Source of the DNA: a virus
Lineage: Duplodnaviria; Caudoviricetes
Direction: 5' to 3' (one strand)
DNA length: 64,000 bases
Virus record (IMG/VR): IMGVR_UViG_3300032301_000632
Location: 14,136 to 78,135 of that record
Part shown: piece after piece, positions 7,045-43,027 of the stretch
How the letters are laid out: each line of letters starts with the position of its first letter
Numbering within the stretch: position 1 is the stretch's first letter
Position numbers and translations under genes: made by a program
Notes under the pieces: model-generated
Databases searched by the model: none
What the model was told of the DNA's origin: nothing
What the model saw: the letters and a program-made list of their open reading frames with translations, nothing else

Positions 7045-7061
7045 CGTGGGGATACCCCACG
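7045..7061 (+). terminator. GC-rich hairpin, possible terminator
   Basis: CGTGGGG-ata-CCCCACG just after the 7034 stop; the following T tract is weak. Confidence 0.45.
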
Positions 7062-7476: not shown

Positions 7477-7529
7477 ATGAGCTATTATTTAAAAAGACTG
7501 TTTTTCTAACCACCAACAAGGAAATAAAG

Positions 7530-7808: not shown

Positions 7809-7851
7809 TTACAATAGAATGGTAGTATTATCTAGAAATTTAATGTAGAAT

Positions 7852-9141: not shown

Positions 9142-9201
9142 AGTTATATACTCGTTAATTATAAAATTTGTTAATTGTTTAACTATACTTTAGCAAATAT
9201 T

Positions 9202-12200
9202 TTAATAAGCATGTGCATCAAATAAAGATTCATCTTCAAAATAAGAAAATCCAGTTACATTAAAATAATTATCTTTTTCATAAGCATCAGGCTCAGCTAC
9301 ATGTACAGTAGTTTTCTGACCTTTTTTAGTAGGTACAACTGTAGGTTTAGGTGCTGGTCTTGGAGTATAATGTTGGTCAACATTAGATAAGTCAGTATCT
9401 GTATCTAAGTCTAGTTTTACAGCTTTACCTGGAGCTTCTTGAGCTTTAACAGACTGAGCATATGTAGCTAATTGTGACAATTCATCTATAGCTAGATTAG
9501 TTTCTTCATATTGTTCAGCAGCATCTACTTTAGCAGCAGTAGTAACAGTTGCTTTAGCACGCTCAGACCCACTGATATCTGTAGGCAGTGGTTTTTTAGA
9601 TTCTTCTTTAGCGGCATTTAAGGCTTCTAATTGGTCATAATATACCTCAGCTTGTTTTCTATAAAATTCTTCTAGTTTAGAATTATCTCCTGTAGCAGCT
9701 GCTTGTCTAATTAAAGCTTCTAAGTTAGCATCCATTGCTGATGTTTCTAAAATAGATACTCCACTTCTTACAGTTGATAGAGTATCACCACTAGCAGTTT
9801 TGTGTTGTTGACTAAATGCACCAAACTTCTCTGCTGCTGCTACATCATATGGGTGTATACTTGAACCATCAGAATTATATCTAGAGCCAGGGATTACACC
9901 GGATGACCCACCATACCAATCTAAGTGTAGTTCAACTGCATATGCTCCTTGTGCTTCTTGTTGAGCTAAGTATTCATGACCTGTACTAATATTTTGTCCA
10001 GCTTTTTGTCTGTATACAGAAGTGTCCCAACCTCTCTCTTTACCTACTTGTGCATAAACATCAGCAGCTACACTAGTTGCATATGACTCCACACTTCTAT
10101 TTAATCCATCTTTTGTTGTTATACCATGACCAGACTTACCAGAAGTACCAGTACCATAGTCAGCTTGGTGACCAGCAGCAAATATAATTCGCTTAGTATA
10201 GTTAGTTTGTTGAGCTGAAGCCCAATCTGCTACTTGTTTAGTATATTTACTTCCTTCAAATCCACCAGATAAATTAACTCCTACTTCAGTTGTACTAGCT
10301 CTTTCTAAAATTCCTGCACTACCTCCACCCCCAGGTTCTGACCCAGCTTGATTAGCACCATGACTAAACATCATCATTGCTGTATTTTTGATATTAGACC
10401 AAGTATGTGATAAAGCTTCTTTAGCTACCACCCATGTACGTTTAACAGTCTCACTAAATGCTTTTATACCAGCTTGAACATACTTCATTAATGACCCTTC
10501 TTTTTTTAGTTTTAGATTTTTTACTTCAGGGTTAAACTCAATAGGTGCAACCTGATTAAAAACTAAATGCTCTACCCCATAATCTTTTTTATCTTTTGTA
10601 TCTTCCTGTTCTTCATTATTTTTATCTTTATTTTTATTAGATTTTTTAATTAACTTGTCTGCTTTATGTAGCTCAATAGTAGTTAATTTAATTTTCCCTG
10701 TTTTAGGTAAAGTAAGTTTAGATAAGTCCGCTGTAGTAAATATTTTACTAGCTTTATCATGTCTTTCTTGAACATCTTTTAGCTCTGCTGTTAGCGTAAT
10801 AAACTGTTCTTCTATTTCTTTCTGTCTAACTATCTGTGTAATTGATACTTGTTTGGATGTTTTGGCTATATCAGAAATTGATTTACCTTGTCTATATAAC
10901 TCGAACGACTCCTCTCCAGATAACCCAGATGCTGTTTTAATACGTTGTGCTTTTTCTCGTTCTCTAGATTTATCTACCCTATGCTGATAAGTATCAGTAT
11001 TCTTTTCTGTATGCATTGCTAACTCAGTAGTTAATAAATGCCCTAAGATAATACCAGCACCTATTAGAGCAATAAGGGGCAATACAGCTAGCCCAATAGT
11101 TAAGCCAACTATACCTGCAAGTAAAGCCCCAATAACTATACCAAGTGTTTGATATGTACTAACTTTTTTAGCCGAGACTTTATTTTCATATGCTCGTTTA
11201 GCATATACTTTACCTACTTGGTCACCTGCATAGTCAGCTACTAAACCTAAACCTAATCCTAAAACTGGATTAATTAGTCCTATCATTTCAGCACCTAATC
11301 CCCAAGTACCAGCAAAAGAGCGTCTCATACCTGACTCGTACATGTCTTTACTACCGTTGTACTCGTCTTCGACTTTATTTAAGCGTTCATGACCACTCAT
11401 CATAATTACAGTGCTTATAGCTACTGAAGCTGGAGTGGCTAACTTATTAACTATGTTGCCTACAGGTTTTAAAGCATGAATTGCTTTTTCTGATACTCTA
11501 CCAATTAAAGACCCTCTACCTACAATAGCTTTAGGTAGTCTATCTAATTGCTTACTAATAAACAACATAGTTTTATTAGATGTATCAATTTGTGTTTCTA
11601 CAGTAACTATCTGTCCTTTAAGAGCCCTTCTTCTAGCTAATAATAATTTTAAATCTCCAGCTTCATTAGGATTAACAGAACCAAAACCTTTAGCACTAGA
11701 TGTTGATGATTCTACTAGCTCACCACCAATACTAGGCATTTTACCAGCTGCTATATTAGGGTCATACAGTACTATAGCCCCACCTTTTTCTAAATTTAGG
11801 TCAATGTGAGTCATCTCACTTAATTCAACAATGTCATCCGCAACATTAGGTATTCTACTTGTTTGTATACTAGGGTCATAAGGGATAATAGCTCCACCTT
11901 TTTCATAGCTAAGGTCTAGTGTTTCATCTAAACTAGTAGCCCAAGTACTATGATATATTCCATCATCTGGAGAGTATTCCCACTTAATTTTAAAATCAGC
12001 TTTAGGTGCAGCATCAATAGTTTCATCTAATGTTGTAACTAGAGTATTTGTTTTAGGTGATGTATACTCTAAAGGCGACTTAGTATTAGTCTCTCCAACA
12101 AGTTGAATTGCTAGTTTTTCCCCTGCTGTTTTAGTAGCTGCACTAACAATAGGAGTTTTTCCATGTGGCATATAATCAATAGCAGTACTTATTTTACTTT

Positions 12201-15200
12201 TACCACTAAAATTAATTTCTGGTTTTGGTAATTTAGAACCTTTTTTTGGTTTAGGAGTATTCGACCCTAAATCTTGAGATAATTTACTTACAGATGTCTT
12301 TGGTTTTGTACTAGGTTTAACTGCTTTCGGACTACTAGCTAATCTACCTTTACCTGGTTTACCAGCTTGTTTAAGTTTAGTAGCCATACTAGTTCTTTTT
12401 ATCCCTCTTATAGCCTCTTCTACTTCATCTAATTCACTAGTTAAAGTAGCTAGCTGTTTTTGATGACCAACTAAAGCTTCAGATAAACCTTCAGCTTGTT
12501 TATTTAAACTGGTAATAGACTCCTCTAAAGCATGAACATTTAATAGTTCAGGATTTTTAGCAACTGATGCTAATACCTTATCTCCTATATCATCAGCAAT
12601 AGCATCAAAGCCTATACTTTTTAGATATCTAAATCTATCTAACATATTAGTACCACCAGGCACTGCATTAACTAAACTTAAAAATCCTTCATTTCTACTA
12701 TGAGAAATAAATCTAAAAGCTTTTGCTAATAAAATCTTTCCACCTTTACTAGTCTGACCAGCATGTTCAGTTAAATATTTAGTAGACCATTTAACCGCTT
12801 TAGTAGCTAACTTATCAATTACTTTAGTGCGTAAAAAATCTCCAGCTGCATTAGCGATCGCTGATTTCTGTATTGTACGTTTAATGCCATATTGTAAATA
12901 AGCTACTTCATCATTATCATTTAATCGCTGTCTTTCATCTATCCAACTATCAGATGGTTTAGATAAAGCAGATAAACCACCCGCTGTAAAAATATCTAAG
13001 AATGGTCCAAATGCTCGATAACCAAATAATCCGCCTATAAAATAGTTAGTAGTTGTTAATAAATTAGTAAATGCAAAGCTAGTCTCTAATTTAGACATAC
13101 CATCTTTTTGCATTTTAAAGTAGTCAACACTATAGTATGCAATAGAACCTATATCAACTATAGGACCCATGCCATCTAGTAAACTTTCTTTAACTCCTCG
13201 TACACCAAACTTGGTTACCATTCGGGCTGCACTTCTATTACCAGACAGTGCTACTTGAGTAAGCTTTCTTAGTATTAATCTTTCTCCAGCTTGTATACCT
13301 TTACCAATCGCTTTCTTATTATCAAAGAATAAATTTGCTGCAATCAGACCGCCAGCAATTAAATCATGTTTATCTCTATCTCCATCAGTAAAAGAATTAA
13401 TAGCATATGCGCCTAAAATAGAATACCTTACAAATCTAAAAGCTGTTGTGGATTGTAACTTTGTAAATTTATTAGGGCTCTTTAAATAATCTACCGCTGA
13501 TGCACCTAGCATATATCCAGCAGTACCCATAATAGCGTCACGCTGTGCACGTTCATCGTCAGTACTAATACCTGCTATTAGCCCCATAACCCCAACGGCT
13601 AATCCTAATCCATATTTTTGAAATAACTTACTTCTCCAAGCTTTAGTAGTAGCTAATTTAACATCTATCTTTGTTAGTTTTACTTCTCTAGAAGTAAGTT
13701 TGTATCCATTTAAACTTTGAATTCTTTCTCTAAATGAACTAATTTGACCAATTGCTAAACTACGATTTATGTCATAACTTAACATACCACCATAAGTAGC
13801 TCCTGCTAGAAAACTTCCTGTATCTTGGTTTATATAATCCCCACCATATTTAGCTAATCCAGCAGCTCCTACTCGTAACCCAACACTACCATATTGTTTC
13901 AATATAGGTAGGGCTAACTTTTTATTTCTAATTAAGTCATATGCAACTGCTGATACTGCACTACTGCCAGCTAGAGTATAATCTTCTTGGCTTATTTCAC
14001 CATTTCTTAATTTCTGTGCTGCTAAAAATGCAGCTGGGAATAAAGCATATCTAAATAAAGAATATTTAGTTGAAACTAATTTAAAAGAGTCATGAGATAA
14101 GTTAGCACCAATATACGCCCCCATAACAGCGCTCTCTACTTTATTTAGCTCACCTTTTTTATACATCGTGTATGCAAAAATAGGTGCATATCTAGAAGCT
14201 ACAAATAGTGACTTTCTATTTGTATACATAGATTTAACAGTCTTACTAGTTATGTTTAAGGTTTCATTTAAAGCATTAACAGTTGGCATTGGATTTCTAA
14301 TAATGTCATAAGACATTGACCCAACAAACATACCAACAGCAAATGCATAGTCTTCTTTAGTGATTTCTCCTTTACTTATTTGTTGATTTAATAAAACTGT
14401 AGAGGGTAACAATAAATGTCTACCTAACTTCAATACACCTTTGGAGATATTTACAACTGGTACGCTCTCTTCACTAGCAACAACTTTAGAGGCTGTTTGT
14501 ATTGGAGGCTTAGGTGCTGGTATTTTAACGCCCGGTGTTTTAGTTGGTGGTATTAAATTACCTTCTGTATCAATAGTTCCTAAAAATCTAGTACCTGTTG
14601 ATTTAGGTTGTTTCTTATATCTCCGAGCACGATTATAAGGAACAATAGCTCCTCCTACTTCCTCAACACTGCCATCAGGACGTATATAGCCTAAAAATCT
14701 AGAACTAATAGGTTTAACTCTTGGTTTATAACTTCTTTGATGTTTATAAGGAACAATAGCACCACCTGGTTCATCAGTAAAAGGATGATAGCCTCCGGTA
14801 GAATCAAAATATCCTGTAGATGCAGCAGATGATACTCCTAATCTTCCTCTAATAACTGGTCTTTTGTTAGGAGTATACTTAACAATAGCCCCTCCTTGTT
14901 TAGCTTTATAAGGGACAATAGCTCCACCTTTGTCGTATGGTACAATAGCCCCTCCAGGTTCATGGGGTGTAGGTAAATTTAAAACAGGTCTAGATGTGAC
15001 ATCTATGGTCTGAGACATTGCATCATCTAGAATGCTAGTGGGAGTTCTGCCTGTAACTACTCTTCTAGACCTGGTAGGTATAATAGCCCCACCTAACTCT
15101 TCTTGATACTTAACAATAGCACCTGGTCTAGCATTTGGGTCAAATGTAGGATTAGGATTATATTTAACTATTGCTCCTGGTTTTGTATTAGATACTATAG

Positions 15201-30200: not shown

Positions 30201-33200
30201 CATTTACAGTTTGTTGAGCTCTCTGAAATGTGTTAGCTCTTCTTGTATACAATGTACTGTTACTTCTCGATAAATCGTATCCTGTACCTGCTATTGGGTC
30301 TTCTACATATTGAACTAGTTTAGATACTGCTTTAGTTTTACCTATAATATTCTGTAATCTAGCATTTCTCTTTTGTATAGATTCACTAACAAAGTTAGTG
30401 TCAAACTCGTCTACCTCAGAGGCTAATAGTTTAGCAAACCCACCTTCTCCATCAAATAGATCATCTAAAAACCCTTCTATTGATTCAGCAGGTCTTGAGT
30501 ATAATACTTCAAATAATGAAATCTGAGACCCTTTGACTGCCGGGCGCATTAATGCTTTCTTTAGACTTTCTCTAGCTCTTGCTGAGCTATTAACTAAATT
30601 CTCTAATGCTTGTGGTCTACCTATACTAGGGTCAACTGATTGTTTGACAAATATATCAATATTCTTAACTGTCTCTTTATTAATAATATAGTTAGTAGTA
30701 TCTATTAAACCACCATGTCTATGTTTTAGATTAGCTAATAAATTATTAGTACTTGTACCTTCAGGACTAGCTTGCTGTAAATCGGCAAAGCTTCCTAAAA
30801 TAGAACCAGTATTACCGGGACGTTTTTTATTTAACAAAACAATCCGCTCATCACCATCTACCATTGTTGTACTAAATGAATAGTTCTTTTTATTTAGTGC
30901 ATATTTAGTTTGATTTAAAGTAGCTTGCTCTATCAACTCTAACTCAGATTTCTCTTTAGCTAGATTATTAATTGCGGATAGAGTAGTAATACCAGCTAAA
31001 GCATAAGTCCCGTATATAGCAGCAGTCAATAAAGGAGATAACCAAGAAAATCCACTACGGTCACCCAAAGTAGTAATTAACTCATGACCTGTAATAATTT
31101 CTTTTATAGCACGGGCATTAAATGCACTTTCATTTAGAAATGTTTCTAAATCACTAGCTCCTGCTCCTGAGATTTGATGTTGTCCAGAAGCTAGTTCAAT
31201 CTTAATTTTTGCTTCAGATGGATTTGATATAGGGACCATCCACTTAGCTTTTCCTATAGATTGTAGTGGATTATATGAACGTTTAAACTTCTCACCAGGT
31301 ATAGTTGAATCTCTTAAATCACCAGACAAAATAAGACTCATTGTTATATCCCGATACAACTCATCAGACCTTTGCCAGGTCATCCAACTCATTCTATTTT
31401 GTCTTAAACTTAATTCTCTACTTACTAATGAGCTAGCTTGAGATGCTTCAGAGGCAGATATACTAGTATCTACCACCATTGGTGTAGCTCTAGCAGTGCG
31501 TGACCTAATCCATAATTCCAATCTAGGGTCATATCTATGATCAGAGGCTATTTTAGCATGTTCAGAAAAGTCATGTCGCTCTCTAGCCATAAAGTAACTA
31601 CTAGTTGATAAGTCAGAGAACTCAGATGCTAATTGAGCATATCTAGCTGTATGGTCAGGTTTAAAGCTAGTACCAAATGGACCTAATGGGTCAGCAAAGA
31701 ATGGATCAGACCTATCAGAGTAGGCATTCATATCTAAGATATTAAATGTTAATTTTTTAAAGATATTACCGAAAAACTTCTTAGCTCTACCATGTTTTTC
31801 TCTAGGTTCTAATCCCCACTGTCTTTCTATAGTATTTTCTCCACCACCTAGAACTTTTAGAGTGGGTCCAATAATAGGTAGACTCTCAAATGCCCTAGAA
31901 ACATTCTCTGGCAAGAGATTAGTAATAGCACTTGCAACTACAGTTGTTAGAACATAAGCTGTAGCTGCTGCTTTTACTCTACCTCTCATAGAAACAAATT
32001 CTAGGTTAGCTGGTCTTCTAATAGTTGGGTGACTAATAATAGCGTCCTCAACTATTTTAGGTGCAGCTATTTCTTTAGCCATATTTGTATACAGAGGATT
32101 TATTGTTCTTTTAACAGGTGTCGCCCCTTCTTTTATTCTGTATACATCTTCACTAATTAGCTGTTGTATATTCTTCTCTGCTACTGTAGTGTCTAATGTT
32201 TTTAATCCATTATCTTTTACTAAATCATAAGCAAATGCTCTTCTAGTAAATTTTACTTTATCAACAGCTGGTATATCCCTAGCTATATGTCTCTGCTCAT
32301 TATATAAAATTTGTTGTAATTCATACTTAGATGCAAATGCACCTGAGCTATCCAATGCATAACCTAAACCTAAACCAATCCCTAATGTAGCTTGAAACTG
32401 TTCAACACCTGTAGTTAACTCATGGTCATTATATCCTGAACCAGGTTCAGATATCATTCTACCAAAGGCTAATGCTAAATAATATGGTGCTGCTTTTCTA
32501 GTAGCTCTAGTTATTTTAGTTAACTGTTGTGGTTTTAAATCTTTAGCTGCATAACCTGCATACGCTAATCCAACTGCTGAACTTACTTTTAATCCTAATT
32601 TTGCTACATCAACTGCTTTATTGTATACATCATTATCTGTATCTGAAGGTATTAAATCAATAGACGAACTTATAGCAGAATATAGTGCTGCCGCTACTGG
32701 TAGAGCGATCGCTTTATTTCCGAATGTAGCTCTTAATGCTTTAGCAGAACCATAAGCATAGTGTGCTGGTACTGTCATTAAGTTAGCTACGGTATCTTTT
32801 AAGATATACTTAGTTGCTTTAAATGGTATACTATTTACTACTCTAGCAATACCACTGCTTTCTCTACTAATTATTTTTTTAGCAATATCTAATTTTAAAA
32901 GAGGCTTAGTAGCAAAACCTAATAATGCTACCATACCTATATCATTTAAACCACTCTCAAAAGACGAGTCTTGCTCATAAGCTAAACTACTCCCCCCTGT
33001 AAATAAACTACTCGACACATTAGCTAAAACCTGAAATGTATCTCGTGCAGATAATTGGTCGGCAATATATTTATTTTGTTCAGTCTTTTCTTCATGTGTA
33101 GGTTTACGGTCAGTTAATCTAACAGAGAAAGGTAACGTTGGGCTCATACCTAAACCTAGTACAGGAGATAACTGAAATGCAATACCAAAGGTTATTTTTC

Positions 33201-36200
33201 TAGTATTAGTATTTTCTGTATGCTCAACTCTAGCTAGAGCAGCTATTTGGAAGAATGGTAAAGTGGCTTGAGTAGCTACATTATAAATGCGATCGCCTAT
33301 CTTCTGAGTACGTAGTGAATTCTCAGCCATTAACTTAGCCATAGTTAAATGGGCTATATCTCCTTTTGTTCTAGCATAAGGTAGATTCTCCGAAACATTT
33401 CTTTCTAAAATAGAGGACAATAAAGCACCTGTCTCTTCATACTCTATATCTTCTCTAGGGTCATTCCCATAAAATTTATTTAGCATAGAAGCAAACATCT
33501 TTGCCCCTTGCTTTGCTGCTAATACTCCTAACAACCCTACCCCAATAGCTAGGTTAGTATTAAATTTAAGCTTCTGATGTACAGGTTGAGTATACCTAGA
33601 TAGATTCTTATTGTACTCTTTTAGATTAGTTAACACTCTACTATCTGCCTCAAAAGCATCAACAGAGCTAACTTTATTTTCTAAAAACTCATATCTAATT
33701 TTATGTACATCTAGTGGGTCTAAAGATACTCTAGGTTTTTCTAAAGTACCTATATCTTCTATTCTAGGAAATAATACCCCTGCACTTACCCCAGCTACTA
33801 AACCAGTTCCTAAAGCTAAAACTGTTCCTGGCTCACCTTGAAATTTAAATTTAGCAATTGGGTCACCACTAGTGTCATCCATCTCCATGCGTGCTCGTAA
33901 TTGAGTGAAGATATCTACACCACTTTGCAGTGTAGTCCAACCTAGTGCAGCATCAACCATTAAAGCTAAGCCAACACCTTTAGCTATAGTCTTTGTTCTA
34001 GCTATCTGTTTGTATATATCAGAATTTGGATTTTTGATTAGATGTGGAGCTTTTAATATAGCATTTGATGCTTTTGTATTTTTATCAAATGGAGAAACTT
34101 TTTCTGTATGTGTAGAATAGCCTCTACTAGATGCATAATCTCTAAAAGTGTTCTGTAGATTATCATTAGCTCTTATAAACTCTGCAAATTCAGTAGAGTC
34201 TACTATAGATTTTAATGACTTATCAGCATCAATAATTCTTCTAGACTCATTGTCTAATGCACTGATATAACCAGCTTCTGTTTGAGCATAGGGAGGGAAA
34301 GACATCTTATCTGCAAATGCTCCCCAGTTAGATTCTCCCACTTTAGCTTTTAATGTGTTATACGCTCGTTGGTAATCAGCATCGGCCTGCCAAGTTTTTC
34401 TAACTTGTTTTAAACTATCTTTTATTTGAGAAGGTATACTCTTAACTGTATCTATAAATTGTCCAACTCTACTTTTAGCCGAGCTTTTCCATTTAGGTAC
34501 AAAAGTAGAGTATATAGAGTTTACAGTATCACTAACCCAGTTTACTGATTCTTCTAATGAGAATACATCCCCCCAGACGATATTCTTTCTTGGGTCAAAG
34601 TCAGGTAATTTTAAAGCTTCTTTAAATCCTGGCATCCAGTACGCCATATTTAAAGGTAATAATAGACCTACTCTATCTAAAGTCTTTGCAATAGAAGCTA
34701 CCCTTTGATATCCTACCGCTCCAAATTGAACTTTATTTAAACTTAGTCCGCCAGCTGAATTTTTAAACTGTAGATAAGGCATCTCTTTAACTGTTAAAGA
34801 AATCTCATCAATTGAGGCTTTGTATACAGAACTCAAATATTTATCATTTGTATACGGATTTATTGATTCCAGTAAAGGCTTTAATACTGTGTCAAACCTA
34901 CTCTCATCAAAAGTTCGTATATGTTTCTGAATAGAGAATAAACTTAGTTCATCACCTAATTCTATTTTTCCACTACTCCCCGCTGCTACAACTTTATCTT
35001 TAGCTCCAGTAACTTCAAATGACTGTCTTAAACCTAATAAATCATTTATTATAGCTTCTGAATAATTATTTGCTTTTGAAAGAAATTTAATCTCATCTGG
35101 GGTTTTATTCATCATAGCTGTAAAGTTAGATATATTAGCAGCTACTGCCCCAGGAGTATCTGCATATTTTGTTGCTACATTTATTAATCTTCCATAAGTA
35201 GAACCAAATACAAAGTTTCTTGTACTGTCTATAATTCGACTGTATCCAGATCTACCATTATTATGTTCTAACAATTTAGATAATGCTTCAGTTTCTAACT
35301 TTCCTTTAAAGTGTTGGAAAGGTAATGAAATACCAATATATGTACCAATAGCTAAAGATATACTAGATGTACTATCGTAAACTGTACTTAGTAGACTCTC
35401 AAAAAACCCCTCATCTATTTTTTTAGGTTCGTTCTCAACTATATTAAATAACTTTTTAATTGAGCCAATACCACCTCTAGACTGTTCGGCTTTAAATTCT
35501 TTATACTCATAATGCCCAAAAACAGTATCTATAATTCTACCTGTAGTCTTTAATGCACTACCAATAACATTATAATCATCGTGATATACTTCAGCGTTAA
35601 ATAGACGATTTATACGCTGACCTAAATTAGGTTTAGATATTTCCCTATCTAATTTTTTTATAGCTTCAGGAGTTTTTGCTTTATCCGTTCTAGCTAGATA
35701 TAGATTACTAAAAGTACTAACTAAAGGAGTTTGTTCATTATATGCGTATTGCTGAAAGAACTCATCTGGCATAGATAGTGGATAATACCCCATAGTATCA
35801 GTCTGTATAGATGGGTCTACACTATCACGTATAGGCACTCGATATAATTCTAATGTACCTTTACGATTCATAATCATTTCTGTATGAGATACTTTCCTGG
35901 CGTTCTTATTTTTATTCTTAACTTCGTTAAAACCATAATCTGAAATTAAAGAGTCAGTTTGAGCAACTACCTGGTCAGCTTCTGCTCCATCTAGTCTCAA
36001 CATTAATTCTTGAACTCTGTTAGTAAAAGATTCTCTAGTAAAGTTATTAGCCCCAACTAAAGCTATACTTTTACTACCTGTAATTGAAAATCCTTTAGCA
36101 TGTAAAAAGGTAGGGTCATCTTCATCTTGAGATACAACTTTAACACCTGAAGCTTGCAATCTATCCATATCAGATGTGTTACGATTAGTTTTATCTACTA

Positions 36201-37794
36201 ATACTGTAACCTTAGCTCCTCTTTGTCTAGCCTCTGCTAGTGATACTAAAATTCTAGGGTCAACTGAACCAAAGGGTAAATATATTTTGACATCATCCTT
36301 TTCAGTTGCATTAAGTAATAATTCATTTACTAAAGCTTCGCTATCAATTTTATTTAAAGCTGACCCCTCACTTTCAACTACTTTATTTTCTTTAATCTGT
36401 GTAGAAAATCGTTCTAAGTCTGATACTAACCTAGGGTTTGTAACTGTATACCCATAATCTAAAGCTATTGTATCTCTAGGTTCTTGAAATGGTATATCCC
36501 AACCAGACTTAGCATGGTCTTCAACAGCTTTAGCATTTAATCTTTTAACTTGTTTAATTCTTTCTGCTTTAGTTTTAGCTACATTAGCTCTATCAATATC
36601 TCCAATATTCCCTGTTGTTATAAAAAAACTTTTCTCTCCATCTATAACACGGCCATATAACTTAACGTGGTTAATATAAGAAATTTCAGGGTCAGAGTAA
36701 GTAGTAGTGTGTATACCTAATCTATTAGCATTTTCTAATACTGATACTGCTCTAGTTAACTGGCTAACATAACTATCTTTACCATGCATATCCCCAACAT
36801 CAATATTAGCTGTTTTTATTTTTCCTATATTTCTAGTAACAGGAGTATTTATTTCTAGCGGGTCAGTATTGTATGAAATTATGCTAACAGTTTTATCCTC
36901 TGCTTCTTGAATAAATTTTTCTAAACTAGTCCCTAAATTATCAGGATTAACTAGTTCTAATCTAGTTTCTGAAAATCTATTCTTTGTGTTATCAACAATA
37001 TTCGTAATAGGGCTAACTATACCTTTAATAGTTTCCCCTATTGTACGCATAGAGGCTTCTTCTATTGCACGAGAAAATTGTTTGTAGCTAGTTTGAGGAG
37101 TTGTCTCATATTTTGTAAATGGTTTAAAAGTTCTAACTTTAAAAGGCTGTATACTAGCTAACTGTTTATTATACTCTTCAGCACCCTTTTCATCTTTATT
37201 TTTTTCTGCAATGTCTAACTGTATCTGTATACGTCTTAATGTACTGTCTAACTGTCTGTTGGTGTTATTAATACCAAATTCTTGGTCTACTGCAGTAACT
37301 GCAAAAGATTGTGTGTTATGTTCTAATAACTTATGCTGTACTCTTCTTTTATTCTCAGCTAAGATTTTTCCAGAATCTAGTCTATTTAGACTATTGTCTG
37401 GGATATACGCTTCAACTTCTTCTACTGTACTAGGTGCAAAAGTTGATACAGCAACCTTTAATGGCTTTTGTTGTACTTGATTTTTATCTGAAGTATTTCT
37501 AGACTTTTGCTTGTTTAGACTATCATTTATATCCCCAACATCAGCATCAGCTTTTTCTTCTTCAACCGTACTATGTGCAGAATTCGATATATTAAATTTT
37601 AAAGGACTTTGATGTACAGGTATTTTAGACGAAATCTTTTTGGGGTCTATATCCTCAATATTAAATACATCTGAAGAACTCTCTTCAGATTTATTATTTG
37701 CATAATATTGTAGATACTCTTGAAGCAAAAACTCATGTTGTTCATGCTCCTGGTCATTCTCCCAAGTAAATAAGCTGTCTAAATTTTCTGCCAT
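9202..37794 (-). CDS. Giant (9,530 aa) multidomain virion protein, tape-measure/ejection-like polyvalent protein
   Basis: Uninterrupted 28.6 kb ORF at the distal end of the virion block. It has many Gly/Ala-rich hydrophobic helices, internal repeats and recognisable enzyme motifs (listed as sub-features). Confidence 0.85.
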   Translation of the reverse strand: MAENLDSLFTWENDQEHEQHEFLLQEYLQYYANNKSEESSSDVFNIEDIDPKKISSKIPVHQSPLKFNISNSAHSTVEEEKADADVGDINDSLNKQKSRNTSDKNQVQQKPLKVAVSTFAPSTVEEVEAYIPDNSLNRLDSGKILAENKRRVQHKLLEHNTQSFAVTAVDQEFGINNTNRQLDSTLRRIQIQLDIAEKNKDEKGAEEYNKQLASIQPFKVRTFKPFTKYETTPQTSYKQFSRAIEEASMRTIGETIKGIVSPITNIVDNTKNRFSETRLELVNPDNLGTSLEKFIQEAEDKTVSIISYNTDPLEINTPVTRNIGKIKTANIDVGDMHGKDSYVSQLTRAVSVLENANRLGIHTTTYSDPEISYINHVKLYGRVIDGEKSFFITTGNIGDIDRANVAKTKAERIKQVKRLNAKAVEDHAKSGWDIPFQEPRDTIALDYGYTVTNPRLVSDLERFSTQIKENKVVESEGSALNKIDSEALVNELLLNATEKDDVKIYLPFGSVDPRILVSLAEARQRGAKVTVLVDKTNRNTSDMDRLQASGVKVVSQDEDDPTFLHAKGFSITGSKSIALVGANNFTRESFTNRVQELMLRLDGAEADQVVAQTDSLISDYGFNEVKNKNKNARKVSHTEMIMNRKGTLELYRVPIRDSVDPSIQTDTMGYYPLSMPDEFFQQYAYNEQTPLVSTFSNLYLARTDKAKTPEAIKKLDREISKPNLGQRINRLFNAEVYHDDYNVIGSALKTTGRIIDTVFGHYEYKEFKAEQSRGGIGSIKKLFNIVENEPKKIDEGFFESLLSTVYDSTSSISLAIGTYIGISLPFQHFKGKLETEALSKLLEHNNGRSGYSRIIDSTRNFVFGSTYGRLINVATKYADTPGAVAANISNFTAMMNKTPDEIKFLSKANNYSEAIINDLLGLRQSFEVTGAKDKVVAAGSSGKIELGDELSLFSIQKHIRTFDESRFDTVLKPLLESINPYTNDKYLSSVYKASIDEISLTVKEMPYLQFKNSAGGLSLNKVQFGAVGYQRVASIAKTLDRVGLLLPLNMAYWMPGFKEALKLPDFDPRKNIVWGDVFSLEESVNWVSDTVNSIYSTFVPKWKSSAKSRVGQFIDTVKSIPSQIKDSLKQVRKTWQADADYQRAYNTLKAKVGESNWGAFADKMSFPPYAQTEAGYISALDNESRRIIDADKSLKSIVDSTEFAEFIRANDNLQNTFRDYASSRGYSTHTEKVSPFDKNTKASNAILKAPHLIKNPNSDIYKQIARTKTIAKGVGLALMVDAALGWTTLQSGVDIFTQLRARMEMDDTSGDPIAKFKFQGEPGTVLALGTGLVAGVSAGVLFPRIEDIGTLEKPRVSLDPLDVHKIRYEFLENKVSSVDAFEADSRVLTNLKEYNKNLSRYTQPVHQKLKFNTNLAIGVGLLGVLAAKQGAKMFASMLNKFYGNDPREDIEYEETGALLSSILERNVSENLPYARTKGDIAHLTMAKLMAENSLRTQKIGDRIYNVATQATLPFFQIAALARVEHTENTNTRKITFGIAFQLSPVLGLGMSPTLPFSVRLTDRKPTHEEKTEQNKYIADQLSARDTFQVLANVSSSLFTGGSSLAYEQDSSFESGLNDIGMVALLGFATKPLLKLDIAKKIISRESSGIARVVNSIPFKATKYILKDTVANLMTVPAHYAYGSAKALRATFGNKAIALPVAAALYSAISSSIDLIPSDTDNDVYNKAVDVAKLGLKVSSAVGLAYAGYAAKDLKPQQLTKITRATRKAAPYYLALAFGRMISEPGSGYNDHELTTGVEQFQATLGIGLGLGYALDSSGAFASKYELQQILYNEQRHIARDIPAVDKVKFTRRAFAYDLVKDNGLKTLDTTVAEKNIQQLISEDVYRIKEGATPVKRTINPLYTNMAKEIAAPKIVEDAIISHPTIRRPANLEFVSMRGRVKAAATAYVLTTVVASAITNLLPENVSRAFESLPIIGPTLKVLGGGENTIERQWGLEPREKHGRAKKFFGNIFKKLTFNILDMNAYSDRSDPFFADPLGPFGTSFKPDHTARYAQLASEFSDLSTSSYFMARERHDFSEHAKIASDHRYDPRLELWIRSRTARATPMVVDTSISASEASQASSLVSRELSLRQNRMSWMTWQRSDELYRDITMSLILSGDLRDSTIPGEKFKRSYNPLQSIGKAKWMVPISNPSEAKIKIELASGQHQISGAGASDLETFLNESAFNARAIKEIITGHELITTLGDRSGFSWLSPLLTAAIYGTYALAGITTLSAINNLAKEKSELELIEQATLNQTKYALNKKNYSFSTTMVDGDERIVLLNKKRPGNTGSILGSFADLQQASPEGTSTNNLLANLKHRHGGLIDTTNYIINKETVKNIDIFVKQSVDPSIGRPQALENLVNSSARARESLKKALMRPAVKGSQISLFEVLYSRPAESIEGFLDDLFDGEGGFAKLLASEVDEFDTNFVSESIQKRNARLQNIIGKTKAVSKLVQYVEDPIAGTGYDLSRSNSTLYTRRANTFQRAQQTVNVSEPRVTSSSNKQWSTGFINSTLDAGMGLAEASRVWMSSIVPSYEVLEGAALMVDKNQDPYMRRAGGVAAMRSIISLGLSVGSSTLIAMAGLSGPIALVLGFGLVAGAQILRYSKNPNAYQEEEVALGKLTDFMIDPSGSLSKSLEGNILQKPVSLLAKIVTTPIGETLNLLAKPINYISSQYIGPVIAEMWDGMQNEWFGKSMVASMFLPMFTAYSAELYKKKDDARYILDNIKMAMAAPNLQGVVDPLLLGQVSGDREQALYERYFSSNSVGGRISDSFGPSNYRISNLLANELKRRQGLYNQAVVGSAVNRLKPVKPNYWGSAVVAVGALAASKAFAHFSSLESRTRFGDNFEIGLSETDKKLATKWFGYKPAAKRELSSLFDLYDKAHNKLNPDNPLNNPNRPTVGLSRKSTAYLIDEQQIELSHKATKSLANRNRGMVVAGSSKELSESVYNSSAFKVFHEYSHHLTVTSQDTLMTKGIQKKLLSTLSTGIGKADRIKFVKYIERISLESTLKHIKELKDAGETITQEYVKTVYRTELDANTKASQAFHETFSHNRFANFDDGAEQYIELTNEYNEKLKAAPSINKQTRAAIAKLETGRAEFKTSKVNLGSSKLSPNYGMGKGFGTSSADDVDDLLRTTIKADTPDAGYRWAQSDTMPVSRITSRYQSSYHGKFGGRELTNIQSRRLVLQRSINNLALDRTMSRINSSTTQLTQAEIRLISLEETLAVHQEVGQAIKTGDTDYIDNLVKNNRSNVADNASKLRREMSQRLKTAKAIENQALHGRLHTGTEAPTEEAPKVTSSEPTLKSWAREEVDMASHRVYKSMSPRAQLVLDDIKDMGKQLKSMPRRFMEAFNDVDEFIPTTKVRPSMTHTVGDIINNFENIPAYAKAVAKDKMFSLRNVVLPKAKHVASRIGRGFQEIFGQLEILTMGLDVYRGASTHQTFHNLSKAYATYYANPEDVEQTFKKARAHELIEASSTFISFAASMLSGAGATRAIVGMTFGLGLAILSPDVFGLAGHMAKKDQEKLSQGEYVDPLVLTSSAYLRTYGNYTRASSISTEVTKKLLQPLRITLKKGLRKVLSSKAFAFTHTNFTKASLGVLGVTSLMVMYDNYKLKREWDNLSAELQSRYGSFEEYKIRNQNNLVRLANKSAIISTVADGAYRTYSAASYNFGLPSIRTLVSRGYTAVKGKVIEAATKVGNVFNDVKIFADDVISLIRPHVRPFIEPVKNKVIEVFNYITTREVYIKAKAIADEVVTATVAGAKAFIKEPIATVKSSMSKLPEAITSVYNAAKSKITELLALAPNSNSPLAWVVQQLQALKSMVGSGINYLKQNLEVAKRVLGETADKAVRQTGRIIGLVTSNTSKLLEKVGIKTGVIANQIGRLKASIKTASKKLFSETLEKISTQISNGPLPKVLDKFGKVVIKQGWKNVAINFISPILDIMQFQGSVKDAKQLNEHSSLAEFEAAYSRAGAARGSLGGYLMGLIGMGNLGGFVSSIFGATVRAESAKKKAKKRKEYLEKHGGRMTTMMIIQDFYIPLVIDVGLGIGAGLAIKHFGTKALSYLGEKISPHIPESMKPRLQGLRKAWEKGKAKGIQKEAEMLAARQERLQMKTQKVTIDTLMDSYDKQMNVPKGAQKPKIVMGEVGVSTHYNVQTKTIVMSKEDYLALSLENTPEAKQAKFAFYHEYSHHYQVSGDLERLPITDITENRELLMKQAQASTVSYAENISKINGAAPSVEELALVYQEELSANIRAQQMGGAAIDSDFINQQASKYDDLVKQSTAATAHGVNIRNVLYTSNTDSIFSIIKNKDELLHNIKLRTSFYGKVSTDFSREVSSAVKSIAKGVRDLPKNVSSIVDVYRNTADLPAPVYKKFVWNLPKDVVDSFAGYKSVTEIPTRKGFLFKINYYNPFSNLAPGTNNWFTDPYGVTINTGISDYTTESRVGKMPYDYKTPTGVTPDFVNIDYGINKEGAANTVKYGVFTISSNKSNVEFLDTLDEVLVIRSEPNPMMFNNGVTEIDKKKSATGILENFYEMQVRLKHTLQNYKGDITLVDFHTQVKERFVVHTLLNSVTASPTVAVDSVRSANELKLVRSFESADKHNIAIMLGLFDPNEQILSEKVLGNEKATVKKLRFYTHDGFNIDSKTAAKQPDLVEYTQDSVTGKTYNKSGAVVSDYDLIRIRNGAAEWNNNYKLDDETFLGITKSEIKKVNKLSKLNTRTIGKDVYSREYVLRNSLNSSDRKLITAAYTSKLAPIDTFVDPNFKIDQTTKKSLPHLVLDFRSKYDEFIASGDIKTARGIKSRYGEIVRANKEMSQLLHISDNIDDLDVSAIKKTLNTITDTKHNFGIHGPASGIDSHTPFDISFYLEKPQQVITRQRYLLGKNSRIQDSLVQRKIKELRYKSVEKAQIKLAKLETLKNAVQEHDLDASAKLSRELGFTQKQVTLDSVDQEISKTSKFIDNKITGINKRLSFLNKGIDVKLDKTRFDYYRKMISNNMFMADVEFSREYNKILSTLKPGQTIDDVQDVVNTLVRSTQSKKDLLVAQQKLVYKLYSQGLTLNLNQVVKTLRVESLGEVFEAVGKHALPVAKEVARFAFHKVLHKLDVAVGHPVRNVLHKAATAVNTVTGYDFAKLPVHLDTTFSIFDVGLAIYSTAALNTEIKKYITHYDSGTFDSEEYLRTMTAARATELGSFAGTTLGSTITFLTGNLPLSLVGGISATFAGTKTDLWGLLPTEIGTYYFGLANKIAQKDLKRIQDGYAPTNLQPPVSYYLKMHRDYKVAAKVSQDIVGASGRVIGQGAAYVFGKIVKHILSPIAQKIKQHSRAIRYGAGTLTAALAVDSLIKLKDAETTKEKVMYTTEALGATYVTSLLYAPLKTIDLTMTAATVVAQAAELAAGYAIYAGERIAQLGPKVIKTVEKGIVNPTLNFISKHKRATAIGLTSMALLGAYYVINNLPNVIDMLPVSEESKKYLREKMPVLSGLVKTTANAAVTLMALNVPIIKRMITKNHPTFGSRVTKFNRRAIGGFLRYAIAPNIIENITQSKLSEDQQSFVSSAYLGLNLGFDSSNIAHNLRSWKGDARLRAVSLEIFTTELNTAKRNLSANTRFYLPGEKDIEVGNYKAARNRYNTAVAKYDAQNTPAQLKKARDGIQRANLIFNLAMPFLLLATKLLNRDEEDRKITKEDIYAASGIAAGQAVGMVAQRAGLIFTKANIVSFLKSKLVRELKGATMAAARSGVFAAYLAAKMYYPDKTNATTDFLASTYIGAVVAHDTTNLSNALLSHSYKAHTKNFKTFGIKPAIGVHGVSMTLKYSLLPIMYLTNRLVNEGKITKEDLANSGGYLLGATAYDLSKNHKAIISQSKTIVRKSVEFGRRYSKNILLATAAIGYVAGLGYYTHKKLNNEELESKEAFLLGAYIGANFALITYPRHKVAKPGIQYGTLPVIEINRVKPKTEIVHVSKSPSRTVNVVNNEIFYSPGSKPQLQLSASTAVRIETPMPSYKSGEIVLSTQAKSVASTVDIEPRPQLLLTGAEPRKLLPSAKPQLLLAAGNDLAKGTEVSSVKVKPVIEVDPVHRNILGNKVSEGLVDTTKVSKVEGMNAPRIKGGAIIKHSAYDPNYVFMKAELIPDEPVIRMRAELMEEPGGAIVLYNQQRVTKARPKILSSIGGFLKRNIRHLIMPVSFLAAQQLAKGEITKEDYNFAGGMLAGSILHDVVRNPLATSKSLGKFSKSVGKLSKSLANWSIEKAVQHRQSIFMAARYGAAGLYAAHKKGDLNKTESLLTGAYIGANVAHDSYSMFAKTAGEDKVFTKIARVGGLPVLYLVGKGIMTGEINKQDLLLASGYVGGALLYDVARDPKAAVGWVKKHVNLSSRALRYGAAAAYSLFNKDQDSRESFLYGAYLGANIAYDTDFTRQRYNNIEETFTPTATPTATRTSKVYSYVGGEQASDVHVVKKYDSTKQNRRGRLNKRRPPVAQTPFAVVNPNGVTIVSQTKPGAIVKYDPNPTFQPNARPGAIVKYDPNVKFRHIAYPVNKDAGSAIIPLKSRRRSVSPTSLDSLDTEMSSRYRVSSTKPTTVNISSPSSTTGGAIQKFQPQVKRQYKTVQMNAELILDDVDIPKTRQVQLVTESEVASTPKRFNLKVGQLARHLLSPALILLSQQLIKGEITKEDYALAGGMLAGSLGYEFYKHPKAALKATMSVLKVAGDLTAKGLKAGFTWSIQHKTSLAMAARYGAVGLYAAHKKGDLNKTESLVAGAYVGANVAHDSYSMFAKAASENKVFMKVARLGALPVLYLAGKGIMTGEISREDAALAGGYVGGALLYDTVRDHKATVGWIKKHVNLSSRLLRYGAAAAYSLFDEDKDTKESFLYGAYLGANIAYDTDFTRRVRPTRATSSRTPRPKIATFQPFTYSSDNSRVASKPSSVYSYVGGSQASDVHVVKEYDPNKPVTANRRGRLNKRRPTSPFAVVSPDGVTIVSNTKPGAIVKYNPNPTFDSTVRPGAIVPYEKGGAIVPTRSRLKSIEPTHVNKLTYNLTEDISTPRVRPTNVSGGSIVLYKSPQEPGGAIIPLKSRRRSVSPTPLDILDKNMAKEFATSTEQVSDVPGGAIQKYQPQVKEHRQFKNKLTRSTESVYKSEVRYQNKKITKSVGNLKYNSKYINPDLIPDELSATKINFNKLIGQTTRHLLFPAIFLLNQEISKGEITKEDYSFAGGYLAGSLGYEAVRDPKAAIKNVSNVLKVTGDIAGKGLKLAAEWSNRNKQVLFGAARYGAAGLYTAYKKGDLNKTESLLMGAYLGANVAHDSYSMFAKTVGEDRVFNKIARVGGLPLLYLAGKGVATGEINKEDLALAGGYVGGALLYDTIRDPKAAQQWLKNNNPTISKVLRYGVAGAYYTSQDDFNAPESFLFGAYLGANFAHDTYNLKVPSIASTLAFQPFTYSSDNSKLSNRPTGTRRANVYSRVGGEQASDYHVVNKYDPTKQNRRGRLNKRRPTVTQPPFAVVSPDGVTIVSNTKPGAIVKYNPNPTFDPNARPGAIVKYQEELGGAIIPTRSRRVVTGRTPTSILDDAMSQTIDVTSRPVLNLPTPHEPGGAIVPYDKGGAIVPYKAKQGGAIVKYTPNKRPVIRGRLGVSSAASTGYFDSTGGYHPFTDEPGGAIVPYKHQRSYKPRVKPISSRFLGYIRPDGSVEEVGGAIVPYNRARRYKKQPKSTGTRFLGTIDTEGNLIPPTKTPGVKIPAPKPPIQTASKVVASEESVPVVNISKGVLKLGRHLLLPSTVLLNQQISKGEITKEDYAFAVGMFVGSMSYDIIRNPMPTVNALNETLNITSKTVKSMYTNRKSLFVASRYAPIFAYTMYKKGELNKVESAVMGAYIGANLSHDSFKLVSTKYSLFRYALFPAAFLAAQKLRNGEISQEDYTLAGSSAVSAVAYDLIRNKKLALPILKQYGSVGLRVGAAGLAKYGGDYINQDTGSFLAGATYGGMLSYDINRSLAIGQISSFRERIQSLNGYKLTSREVKLTKIDVKLATTKAWRSKLFQKYGLGLAVGVMGLIAGISTDDERAQRDAIMGTAGYMLGASAVDYLKSPNKFTKLQSTTAFRFVRYSILGAYAINSFTDGDRDKHDLIAGGLIAANLFFDNKKAIGKGIQAGERLILRKLTQVALSGNRSAARMVTKFGVRGVKESLLDGMGPIVDIGSIAYYSVDYFKMQKDGMSKLETSFAFTNLLTTTNYFIGGLFGYRAFGPFLDIFTAGGLSALSKPSDSWIDERQRLNDNDEVAYLQYGIKRTIQKSAIANAAGDFLRTKVIDKLATKAVKWSTKYLTEHAGQTSKGGKILLAKAFRFISHSRNEGFLSLVNAVPGGTNMLDRFRYLKSIGFDAIADDIGDKVLASVAKNPELLNVHALEESITSLNKQAEGLSEALVGHQKQLATLTSELDEVEEAIRGIKRTSMATKLKQAGKPGKGRLASSPKAVKPSTKPKTSVSKLSQDLGSNTPKPKKGSKLPKPEINFSGKSKISTAIDYMPHGKTPIVSAATKTAGEKLAIQLVGETNTKSPLEYTSPKTNTLVTTLDETIDAAPKADFKIKWEYSPDDGIYHSTWATSLDETLDLSYEKGGAIIPYDPSIQTSRIPNVADDIVELSEMTHIDLNLEKGGAIVLYDPNIAAGKMPSIGGELVESSTSSAKGFGSVNPNEAGDLKLLLARRRALKGQIVTVETQIDTSNKTMLFISKQLDRLPKAIVGRGSLIGRVSEKAIHALKPVGNIVNKLATPASVAISTVIMMSGHERLNKVEDEYNGSKDMYESGMRRSFAGTWGLGAEMIGLINPVLGLGLGLVADYAGDQVGKVYAKRAYENKVSAKKVSTYQTLGIVIGALLAGIVGLTIGLAVLPLIALIGAGIILGHLLTTELAMHTEKNTDTYQHRVDKSREREKAQRIKTASGLSGEESFELYRQGKSISDIAKTSKQVSITQIVRQKEIEEQFITLTAELKDVQERHDKASKIFTTADLSKLTLPKTGKIKLTTIELHKADKLIKKSNKNKDKNNEEQEDTKDKKDYGVEHLVFNQVAPIEFNPEVKNLKLKKEGSLMKYVQAGIKAFSETVKRTWVVAKEALSHTWSNIKNTAMMMFSHGANQAGSEPGGGGSAGILERASTTEVGVNLSGGFEGSKYTKQVADWASAQQTNYTKRIIFAAGHQADYGTGTSGKSGHGITTKDGLNRSVESYATSVAADVYAQVGKERGWDTSVYRQKAGQNISTGHEYLAQQEAQGAYAVELHLDWYGGSSGVIPGSRYNSDGSSIHPYDVAAAEKFGAFSQQHKTASGDTLSTVRSGVSILETSAMDANLEALIRQAAATGDNSKLEEFYRKQAEVYYDQLEALNAAKEESKKPLPTDISGSERAKATVTTAAKVDAAEQYEETNLAIDELSQLATYAQSVKAQEAPGKAVKLDLDTDTDLSNVDQHYTPRPAPKPTVVPTKKGQKTTVHVAEPDAYEKDNYFNVTGFSYFEDESLFDAHAY
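9700..10200 (-). other. N-acetylmuramoyl-L-alanine amidase (Amidase_3)-like domain at the C-terminus of the giant protein
   Basis: RIIFAAGH (H9209), VESYA (E9236), AVELHLD (H9290) and SILETS (E9350) reproduce the order and spacing of the H-E-H zinc ligands plus catalytic Glu. Confidence 0.72.
13760..20670 (-). repeat. Internal tandem duplications in the giant gene (period ~1.4-1.7 kb)
   Basis: The hydrophobic module KGEITKEDY...KKGDLNKTES..GAYIGANVAHDS recurs at ~19170-18460, 17770-17055, 16170-15460 and 14420-13760, with degenerate copies at ~20.0-20.7 kb. Spacers with NRRGRLNKRRP...PGAIVKY.PNP occur at ~18.3, 16.85 and 15.27 kb and are recognisable at DNA level. Confidence 0.92.
24900..25260 (-). 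other. Zincin-like metallopeptidase motif 2 within the giant protein
   Basis: HEYSHH at aa 4222 (nt ~25114-25131) with downstream EELSAN (E4283/E4284). It is preceded by the strand pattern THYNVQTKTIVM. Confidence 0.65.
28540..28900 (-). other. Zincin-like metallopeptidase motif 1 within the giant protein
   Basis: HEYSHH at aa 2996 (nt ~28792-28809) with downstream ELDAN (E3073). Confidence 0.6.
35960..36920 (-). other. Phospholipase D-like (PLD/nuclease) double domain within the giant protein, aa ~290-610
   Basis: Motif 1 NHVKLYGRVID...TTGNI (H376, K378). Motif 2 FLHAKGFSIT...VGANNFT...QELMLRL (H565, K567). Motif 2 is preceded by LAEARQRGAKVTVLVD and LQASGVKV, both typical PLD-fold elements. 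Confidence 0.8.
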
Positions 37795-42263: not shown

Positions 42264-43027
42264 TAGGCTATACTTGTTAATGGTGTTACGTATACACCTT
42301 TTATTGTATAGGATACACAAGTATTTGTAGCTAATACTGATACAGCCAAGTTTAAAATCTGATTAGTTTTTAATAAAAAATTATCAGTTTGGGTATTATA
42401 TGAATGAATAATTTGTTGGAGATTATTATTTACAGCATAGGTGTTCTTACGATAAACCACATTAAATTGGTTATTTAAGATGTTAGGTTGAATTGTACAC
42501 GAACCAACAGGACAGTATAAAATAACATCAGTTATATTCAAATTACTATGTGGGTTAATAATTATAGGATAATTACCTGTGACTGTGGGGTTAAAGATTC
42601 CTGAAAAGGTAGTCTTAAAAGAAGAGTTAACCTGCTCAGGGGTTATTAATCCATGACAACTAGTTGTTCTAACTACAACACTATTGGCTGTTACATTACA
42701 CTTTTGGACATAAACCTCAGAATTATCAGGATTAATAAATTTTATAGTAATGTTAGTTTTTGTTACTAAAGCAGGATATGATAATAAAATATCATTTTCT
42801 GATATGGCACTAACTTTAGTGTTACTGACTAAAAGAGTTTCAAGACAATCATTTAAGCATACAACTTTAGCCAAAGGGTGTATACCAAAAGATAACCAAT
42901 TACCATTAGAAACTCGTTGATGGTCATGGTCATTATATTTAAGGTATACAGCTCTAACCTGGTCAGAGCCTGCACCAGTTGTTGTGTCACCTATATAAGC
43001 AATAGGTGTAACTCCAGATCTACTCAT
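42263..43027 (-). CDS. Hypothetical beta-rich protein
   Basis: 254 aa, translationally coupled to terL by the TAATG overlap. Confidence 0.6.
   Translation of the reverse strand: MSRSGVTPIAYIGDTTTGAGSDQVRAVYLKYNDHDHQRVSNGNWLSFGIHPLAKVVCLNDCLETLLVSNTKVSAISENDILLSYPALVTKTNITIKFINPDNSEVYVQKCNVTANSVVVRTTSCHGLITPEQVNSSFKTTFSGIFNPTVTGNYPIIINPHSNLNITDVILYCPVGSCTIQPNILNNQFNVVYRKNTYAVNNNLQQIIHSYNTQTDNFLLKTNQILNLAVSVLATNTCVSYTIKGVYVTPLTSIA

Follow-up and report, generated by a model that had tools for sequence, protein, structure and literature searches.

Several phage proteins, namely T7 gp15/gp16 and T5 Pb2-type proteins, leave the particle by way of the tail, build a conduit across the envelope and include a wall hydrolase. 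Polyvalent proteins of phages and conjugative elements (P1 DarB type) are reportedly giant multi-enzyme proteins, which presumably reach the recipient cell along with the DNA and in many cases contain a zincin peptidase. Here we describe P0001, a protein of 9,530 amino acids (aa) encoded by one open reading frame (ORF; 9202..37794, minus strand) of the viral record IMGVR_UViG_3300032301_000632. The analysed stretch of 64,000 nucleotides, hereafter called the window, corresponds to bases 14136-78135 of this 78,135-bp linear IMG/VR record, for which CheckV gives a completeness of ~54%. As proposed in an earlier note on this DNA, a single polypeptide at the end of a structural operon unites a phospholipase D (PLD)-like region with two HExxH modules, with hydrophobic helices and with what is probably an amidase. 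The author of that note knew of no such combination at this size; the total size and an extension of ~6,600 aa are indeed new, whereas the first ~2,900 aa belong to the gp120 (phrog_29513) family of Microcystis phage Ma-LMM01. The reading that we favor, tentatively and with a little less than even confidence, is that P0001 is an ejected cargo or conduit protein and not a length ruler.

The Giant ORF and the gp120 Family

The 28.6-kb ORF reported by the earlier note was recovered intact on the minus strand, opening with an ATG start, with no internal stops and encoding no cysteines. Four relatives of P0001 were found, including gp120 of Ma-LMM01 (2,898 aa, phrog_29513, labeled 'hypothetical protein' and 'unknown function'), the 4,151-aa protein WOL31340 of Microcoleus phage My-WqHQDG, a 2,918-aa ORF on a complete IMG/VR provirus (IMGVR_UViG_2909739949_000002, 168,414 bp), and a 3,923-aa protein on an ENA metagenome contig, where an 896-aa intein-bearing ORF lies upstream at the terminase position. 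The provirus protein is also present in nr as 'phospholipase D family protein [Calothrix sp. FACHB-1219]' (2,882-2,918 aa). In all five lineages the giant ORF follows the large terminase, its conserved upstream neighbor (40506..42320, minus strand, in the window), after one to six small ORFs, with three such ORFs in the case of P0001. Convergent genes come next in four of the five lineages, whereas the Calothrix-associated provirus has same-strand ORFs instead.

The Calothrix-associated relative (aa 1-863) was aligned by BLAST with aa 267-1149 of P0001 (E 1e-21), and the 3,923-aa ENA protein (P0003) matches aa 711-833 and 1423-1672 (E 6e-5 and 2e-4). Profiles derived from three of the shorter relatives hit P0001 in colinear order at aa 494-609, 699-837, 967-1088, 1498-1565, and 2798-2843, scoring between 6.5 and 19 bits, compared with at most 5.9 bits in 200 shuffles. 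The PHROG model phrog_29513 itself stayed under the reporting threshold, giving no match to P0001 at E up to 0.01. The two blocks that follow the PLD-like region (aa 699-837 and 967-1088; 34531..35700, minus strand) contain GFFESLLS, LKPxLLESINPY, and GDVFSLEE, and the corresponding motifs common to the family, as judged by eye, are GFFES, LKPxILExINPY, and GDVFSxEE. Block B (aa 1498-1565; 33100..33303, minus strand) is likewise conserved in the family. Block C (aa ~2020-2075; 31570..31737, minus strand), with the motif YxQLxSxxxD(L/I)ST(S/A)xY, was seen only by eye in a guided alignment, and a four-member profile scored -0.3 there, under the best shuffles. Block D (aa 2798-2843; 29266..29403, minus strand; 6.5 bits vs. 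at most 1.8 in shuffles) corresponds to the block found at the C-terminus of the shorter relatives, and the gp120-like core ends with it. Given the BLAST match, the colinear profile blocks and the terminase synteny, residues ~270-2,850 of P0001 are the counterpart of an entire gp120-type protein.

The five lineages share just ~20-30% sequence identity. P0001 resembles its relatives in adjoining the terminase, in having zero cysteines and many hydrophobic Gly/Ala-rich helices, and in the colinear blocks. It differs in being 2.3-3.3 times longer than any relative found, and the relatives lack both HExxH and all parts past aa ~2,900 of P0001. A related 109-kb contig (L004), reached via its terminase, yielded no homologue of aa 1-3000. 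An RNA-polymerase-type acidic loop was also considered and rejected, no DxDxD motif being conserved among the five family members.

Within the core lies the two-lobed PLD-like region (aa ~290-610; 35965..36927, minus strand) with the HxK half-sites H376/K378 and H565/K567. Its presence, called in the earlier note, was corroborated by a Pfam PLDc_2 match above the curated cut-off (aa 499-609, E 5e-11, 43 bits vs. a cut-off of 27) that is colinear with the PLD of the relatives; a fragment of P0001 gave E 1.4e-12, and the score ranged from 43 to 48 bits across scans. The Pfam match covers H565/K567, whereas the upstream half-site lies outside it and its lobe is visible as a motif only. Both histidines and both lysines are present, but the HKD motifs are non-canonical, the aspartate being displaced in the first and replaced in the second. 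The best PDB sequence match was the vaccinia virion nicking-joining enzyme (E 0.4, not significant), and the substrate could be lipid or nucleic acid. PLDc_2 occupies the same place in three of the four relatives, as found for My-WqHQDG by our scan and for the other two via precomputed Pfam tags.

Two side observations concern the relatives. The terminase-position ORFs of the Calothrix-associated provirus (L016:121-3018) and of the ENA contig (L017:6403-9093) are unusually long (965 and 896 aa, respectively); the product of the latter has an Intein_splicing match, and in the former ~390 aa intervene between the two terminase-homologous halves, an arrangement suggestive of an intein. Since L016 is classed as a provirus in IMG/VR and its protein is filed under Calothrix sp. 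FACHB-1219, the Ma-LMM01 lineage may also comprise elements that heterocystous cyanobacteria carry or that were co-cultured with them.

Modules of the Extension

The remainder of P0001 (aa ~2,900-9,530) is a lineage-specific add-on, built partly by internal duplication and almost without detectable relatives. No match was obtained by tblastn of aa 1-3000, 3001-6000, and 6001-8000 against 50,697 phage records, and a 5.8-billion-protein index contained no giant homologues (5,241-16,678 aa) of aa 1-5000. Exhaustive HMMER comparison of aa 4101-5300 with 1.84 billion representatives gave zero matches. Scans of IMG/VR, for which the PLD region, the C-terminus and the repeat alignment served as queries, were empty, as were those of JGI metagenomes and of GTDB genomes, and PDB sequence searches with both halves, the amidase profile and the zincin profile returned nothing significant.

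The sole part of the extension with detected relatives is the putative amidase at its C-terminus (aa 9169-9375; 9670..10290, minus strand), and these relatives are the predicted spike proteins of Ma-LMM01 and near-identical phages. The domain is 28% identical over ~210 aa to the C-terminus of Ma-LMM01 gp094 (L002:14074-15639, 521 aa), with E 1e-9 in the phage database and 4e-13 in the pairwise comparison. H9209, E9236, H9290, and E9350 do not vary between the two domains; these candidate zinc-binding and catalytic residues were assigned to Amidase_3 positions by pattern. Pfam gave no match for the domain in P0001; in gp094, it gave Amidase_3 at E 0.043, which is under the cut-off, and a weak match to the Phage_base_V OB-fold. 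Because of these weak matches and of its position after the tube and hub genes, gp094 was interpreted as a baseplate spike with a wall hydrolase, and the occurrence of an amidase-like domain on such a spike agrees with a function in cell entry. The nearest ESM Atlas clusters to the C-terminal domain of P0001 are N-acetylmuramoyl-L-alanine amidases (0.94 and 0.92). AlphaFold2 modeling of the domain from the single sequence had a predicted local distance difference test (pLDDT) score of 42.7; in a Foldseek search with this poor model AmiA, Rv3717, Ami1, CD27L, and AmiB recurred on top at E 0.03-0.2 (not significant). A word-index search with the C-terminal 431 aa found no match, and the IMG/VR homologues of the domain, all near-identical to Ma-LMM01 gp094, allowed no deeper alignment. 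Thus, the Amidase_3-like domain that the earlier note had placed at aa ~9200-9360 gains homology to gp094, lacks a Pfam match of its own and is graded here as probable. The domain is carried by an OB-fold spike in Ma-LMM01, whereas in the window it is found at the end of the giant protein, and the positional counterpart of gp094 (684 aa; 54841-56895, minus strand) has no amidase-like domain and only a weak OB-fold motif match (E 0.056). This looks like relocation of the domain between two virion genes.

The two HExxH modules are located at aa 2940-3120 (28435..28977, minus strand) and aa 4165-4345 (24760..25302, minus strand). Both copies of the motif read HEYSHH, exactly at aa 2996 and 4222, where zincin motifs had been noticed before, and are 1,226 aa apart. 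The chance expectation for HExxH in P0001 is 0.135, and at least two copies occurred in 46 of 5,000 shuffles. The modules are paralogous (pairwise E 2e-5, 25% identity over 118 aa) and have in common a VYxxELxAN segment, a sequence pattern only, 58-73 residues past the second histidine. In addition to H2996, E2997, and H3000 of the first module and H4222, E4223, and H4226 of the second, it provides the candidate third ligands E3073 (ELDAN) and E4284 (ELSAN), respectively. Pfam matches of module 2 to Peptidase_M91 (E 0.038) and M60 (E 0.046) are both under the cut-off, and the search of PDB with the zincin profile gave no match. The structure prediction advised for these modules was unsuccessful: the AlphaFold2 model of module 2, computed with module 1 as the sole other row of the alignment, had a pLDDT of 42.8, and Foldseek found no zincin. 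Since the Pfam matches are sub-threshold and the PDB, AlphaFold2, and Foldseek results uninformative, the putative zincin assignment is drawn from the motif and its duplication.

Downstream of the second module, the polar region (aa 4400-5250; 22045..24597, minus strand) has no detectable relative. An EF/ExoY-like cyclase considered at aa ~4540-4884 is supported by no profile match, although no test aimed at a cyclase was made. The repeat region named in the earlier note was found at aa ~5700-8050 (13645..20697, minus strand) as four large tandem units of ~470-590 aa that are 38-68% identical. Within each unit, a proline-rich linker accompanies two sub-repeats of helical character, KGEITKEDY...AGG and KKGDLNKTES...GAYxGAN. 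The motif (P/G)G(A/S)I(V/I)x(Y/L) is present in 22 copies between aa 6137 and 8671 (nt ~11780-19385), 20 of them inside the repeat region and two beyond it. Such GGAIV-type motifs (e.g., PGAIVKYDPNP and GGAIVPY) are mostly located in the proline-rich linkers, and the relatives carry at most three. They could serve as docking or beta-strand-addition motifs. The predicted coiled coil was traced to aa ~8421-8472 (12379..12534, minus strand), where SlyX-type matches were obtained, but these are weak (E 0.002-0.01, under the cut-off). The transmembrane (TM) hairpin that had been called near the C-terminus proved to be the strongest hydrophobic hairpin of P0001 (aa 8886-8925) and lies just ahead of the amidase-like domain; together with a third segment at aa 8835-8853, it constitutes a hydrophobic stretch at aa 8835-8925 (11020..11292, minus strand) with a peak Kyte-Doolittle value of 2.57.

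Genomic Setting and Competing Readings

The operon-end position attributed to the giant ORF is borne out by its neighbors, since P0001 is the final gene of a long minus-strand structural run that includes sheath, tube, baseplate, and terminase genes. Upstream on the same strand are the tail sheath (60689-63607), a tandem pair of tail-tube paralogues (58893-59681 and 59792-60580, both phrog_34837 and ~44% identical to Ma-LMM01 gp092), a hub-like protein homologous to Ma-LMM01 gp093 (56900-58798), the spike-like protein, a gp6/J-type baseplate wedge (49112-50152), and the large terminase. Ma-LMM01 has one tube gene where the window has two. A fibre- or whisker-like protein of 491 aa, rich in Thr, Ser, Asn, and Ile (38500-39975, minus strand), shows Gly runs and a sub-threshold Baculo_PEP_C match (E 1e-5); it sits between the terminase and P0001, directly upstream of the latter.

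Downstream of P0001, convergent plus-strand genes encode a CpeS-type bilin lyase, a dUTPase, KilA-N, and DnaJ-domain proteins. The lyase gene (4122-4667, plus strand; PF09367, E 1e-20) is a host-like auxiliary gene of the CpeS/CpcS phycobilin lyase type, and the HIP1 octamer GCGATCGC occurs in 8 copies vs. 0.02 expected; these two features indicate a cyanobacterial host. Megablast of the window against phages gave no match, and the closest relatives of the terminase are from Ma-LMM01 (32% identity) and My-WqHQDG. Taken together, the lyase, the HIP1 count and the terminase relatives assign the element to the cyanobacterial myoviruses of the wider Ma-LMM01 lineage.

The absence of cysteine provides a clue to function. 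P0001 contains 0 cysteines in 9,530 residues, compared with 103 in 10,463 residues (0.98%) of the 29 other ORFs in the window (P ~1e-41), and the five family proteins together have none in 23,420 aa. Among the controls, the lambda tape measure gpH (0/853), T7 gp15 (0/747), T7 gp16 (0/1,318), and the P23-45 tape measure gp96 (0/5,002) are also cysteine-free, while the cysteine content of terminases is 0.85-1.4% in lambda and T7 and 2.6% in the window, and other virion proteins carry some cysteine. From these counts, strict cysteine avoidance marks exactly the proteins threaded through the tail channel in model phages, and its occurrence in P0001 fits a protein that travels through the tail.

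With caution, we infer that P0001 is carried within the particle and exits by way of the tail. Under the favored ejection reading, P0001 would be made together with the morphogenesis genes, packaged in the particle and expelled unfolded via the contracted tail tube. Its hydrophobic Gly-rich helices might then insert in the host envelope and lengthen the conduit, the C-terminal amidase-like domain could open peptidoglycan, and the N-terminal PLD and the two HExxH modules may act on the envelope or on host targets. Where PMC5780444 groups the Ma-LMM01 transcripts, gp120 is placed in cluster B5 with the terminase, hub, and spike, and we counted this co-transcription for a virion-type role. Of the envelope-breaching injection machine envisaged in the earlier note, the architecture and operon context are supported; a place in the virion, the formation of a channel, self-processing, and the enzymatic activities are inferences.

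Several points weigh against ejection. The reachable literature holds no virion proteome or structure for any family member, and cysteine avoidance, being found in other secreted or extracellular proteins as well, is no proof of ejection. With 9,530 aa, each copy would amount to ~1 MDa, a very large cargo to be packed and threaded. The PLD of P0001, with its non-canonical HKD motifs, could be inactive, that of gp120 is degenerate and has no Pfam match, and structure prediction confirmed neither the amidase fold nor the zincin fold (pLDDT 43 in both cases). Finally, the complete relatives have no recognizable tape measure, which leaves room for a ruler role of the gp120 family.

This last point leads to the strongest competitor, which we regard as possible but doubtful, namely that P0001 is the tail tape measure of its lineage. 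It would then fill the tube, set its length and be the first component to leave, and its TM hairpin and amidase would lie toward the tip, as they do in T5 Pb2. The tape-measure families PF10145 and PF20155 are absent from this contig, Ma-LMM01 (NC_008562), the complete 168-kb provirus, and My-WqHQDG (four records, two of which are complete genomes), and the genes that follow the tube resemble a hub and a spike, not a ruler; on both counts, the gp120 family may be the tape measure. Further features in keeping with this role are the lack of cysteine, as in lambda gpH and the 5,002-aa P23-45 gp96 (with a metallopeptidase domain according to its record note), the hydrophobic helices, the change of length by tandem repeats, and the C-terminal wall hydrolase after a TM hairpin. 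However, the gene is situated after the terminase and not between the tube or chaperone and the hub, and P0001 has no tape-measure Pfam or PHROG match. The folded two-lobed PLD of ~350 aa at its start, as well as the polar globular and proline-rich linker regions, are unlike a helical ruler. At ~1.5 Angstrom per residue, 9,530 aa would correspond to a tail of ~1.4 micrometres, and we know of no precedent for a contractile tail of this length, which counts against a ruler. The tail of Ma-LMM01, which we take to be ~200 nm long, is also half the length that the 2,898 aa of gp120 would give (~435 nm).

A wider version of the same idea, which we consider speculative and rather unlikely, holds that the gp120 family supplies the tail-lumen or tape-measure protein missing from Ma-LMM01-type cyanomyoviruses, with a length that tracks the thickness of the host sheath and wall. 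Lengths within the family are 2.9 kaa (thousand aa) for the Microcystis phage as well as the Calothrix-associated provirus, 4.2 kaa for the Microcoleus phage, and 9.5 kaa for P0001. If this were true, P0001 would specify either a contractile tail of >1 micrometre or else a trans-envelope conduit that is extensible and contains modules for the cleavage of lipid, peptide, and wall, and it would, to our knowledge, be the largest phage-encoded protein on record.

Alternatively, P0001 might be a non-virion protein that is anchored by its TM segments and acts on host membranes or the wall from inside the infected cell, with conceivable roles in membrane or thylakoid remodeling, superinfection exclusion, or lysis. 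Its many hydrophobic segments, the combination of a PLD with an endolysin-type amidase domain, the listing of Ma-LMM01 gp120 among the 'middle' genes along with lysozyme and terminase, and the lack of virion data for the family would all agree with such a role. We nonetheless judge it improbable, because zero cysteines in 23,420 aa from five lineages of just ~20-30% identity are not readily accounted for in a protein of the cytoplasm or inner membrane, the gene is always found at the end of the structural operon, and the only detected relatives of the amidase-like domain are on the Ma-LMM01-like baseplate spike. An external virion fibre or adhesin with depolymerizing enzymes (e.g., a head or collar fibre) would agree with the giant size, the repeats, and the lack of cysteine in P0001, which are traits of many surface fibres, and the gene immediately upstream (38500-39975) is fibre-like, but strong TM-type hydrophobic helices throughout P0001 and the absence of fibre, Ig-like, collagen, or beta-helix domain matches in the scans of P0001 make this reading very unlikely.

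Along the 28.6-kb ORF, GC content (0.32-0.37), GC skew, and GC at third codon positions (GC3, 0.12-0.20) are even, tetranucleotide usage correlates with that of the other structural genes at r 0.78-0.90, and the longest exact internal DNA repeat is ~65 nt. The assembly chimera that the earlier note named as a possible refutation is unlikely, because composition is uniform, exact repeats are short, the large repeats are diverged at the protein level (only 38-68% identity), and cysteine is absent from end to end. An artefact of either kind, a chimera or a short-read misassembly of repeat number, is scarcely credible, since, although the source is a metagenomic contig with four large internal repeats that share these short exact stretches and no second assembly of the gene was found in the IMG/VR and JGI metagenome scans, the frame stays open over its whole length in 34% GC DNA with uniform GC3, skew, and tetranucleotide usage, the repeats are diverged, cysteine is missing from conserved core and extension alike, and the core is colinear with four independent relatives.

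Comparison with Known Phage Proteins

Ma-LMM01-type phages infect bloom-forming and toxic cyanobacteria (Microcystis and Microcoleus). The labels of the gp120 family are just 'hypothetical' or 'phospholipase D family'. A conserved cysteine-free giant beside the terminase is a strong candidate for an ejected or penetration component, an idea that is directly testable in the cultured phage Ma-LMM01. P0001 further suggests a mode of growth, in which a core of ~2,900 aa acquired duplicated HExxH modules, four diverged repeats of ~500 aa, and a spike-type wall-hydrolase domain. If packaged, it would set a new upper bound for a protein carried by a phage particle and threaded via the tail.

Among described proteins, the Thermus phage P23-45 tape measure gp96 (5,002 aa) resembles P0001 in being giant and cysteine-free, with hydrophobic segments and an embedded enzyme domain (annotated as a metallopeptidase). 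The two proteins have no sequence similarity, and gp96 belongs to a siphovirus tail module, whereas P0001 is encoded after a myovirus terminase and has PLD and amidase-like domains. Polyvalent proteins are likewise giant and multi-enzyme, but none of their Pfam domains (MPTase-PolyVal, LPD domains, or helicase and methylase modules) was detected in the scanned segments of P0001 even at E up to 10, the sole trace being an ESM Atlas lead to LPD23 (0.88). T7 gp15/gp16 and T5 Pb2 share with P0001 large size, helical character, membrane-inserting segments and a peptidoglycan hydrolase domain; they differ in having 750-1,320 aa and no detected homology to P0001, and we know of no PLD domain or HExxH modules in proteins of this type. 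Phages are already known to breach the envelope with large ejected proteins that bear enzymes, and what P0001 adds to this group is its extension of ~6,600 aa and its total size.

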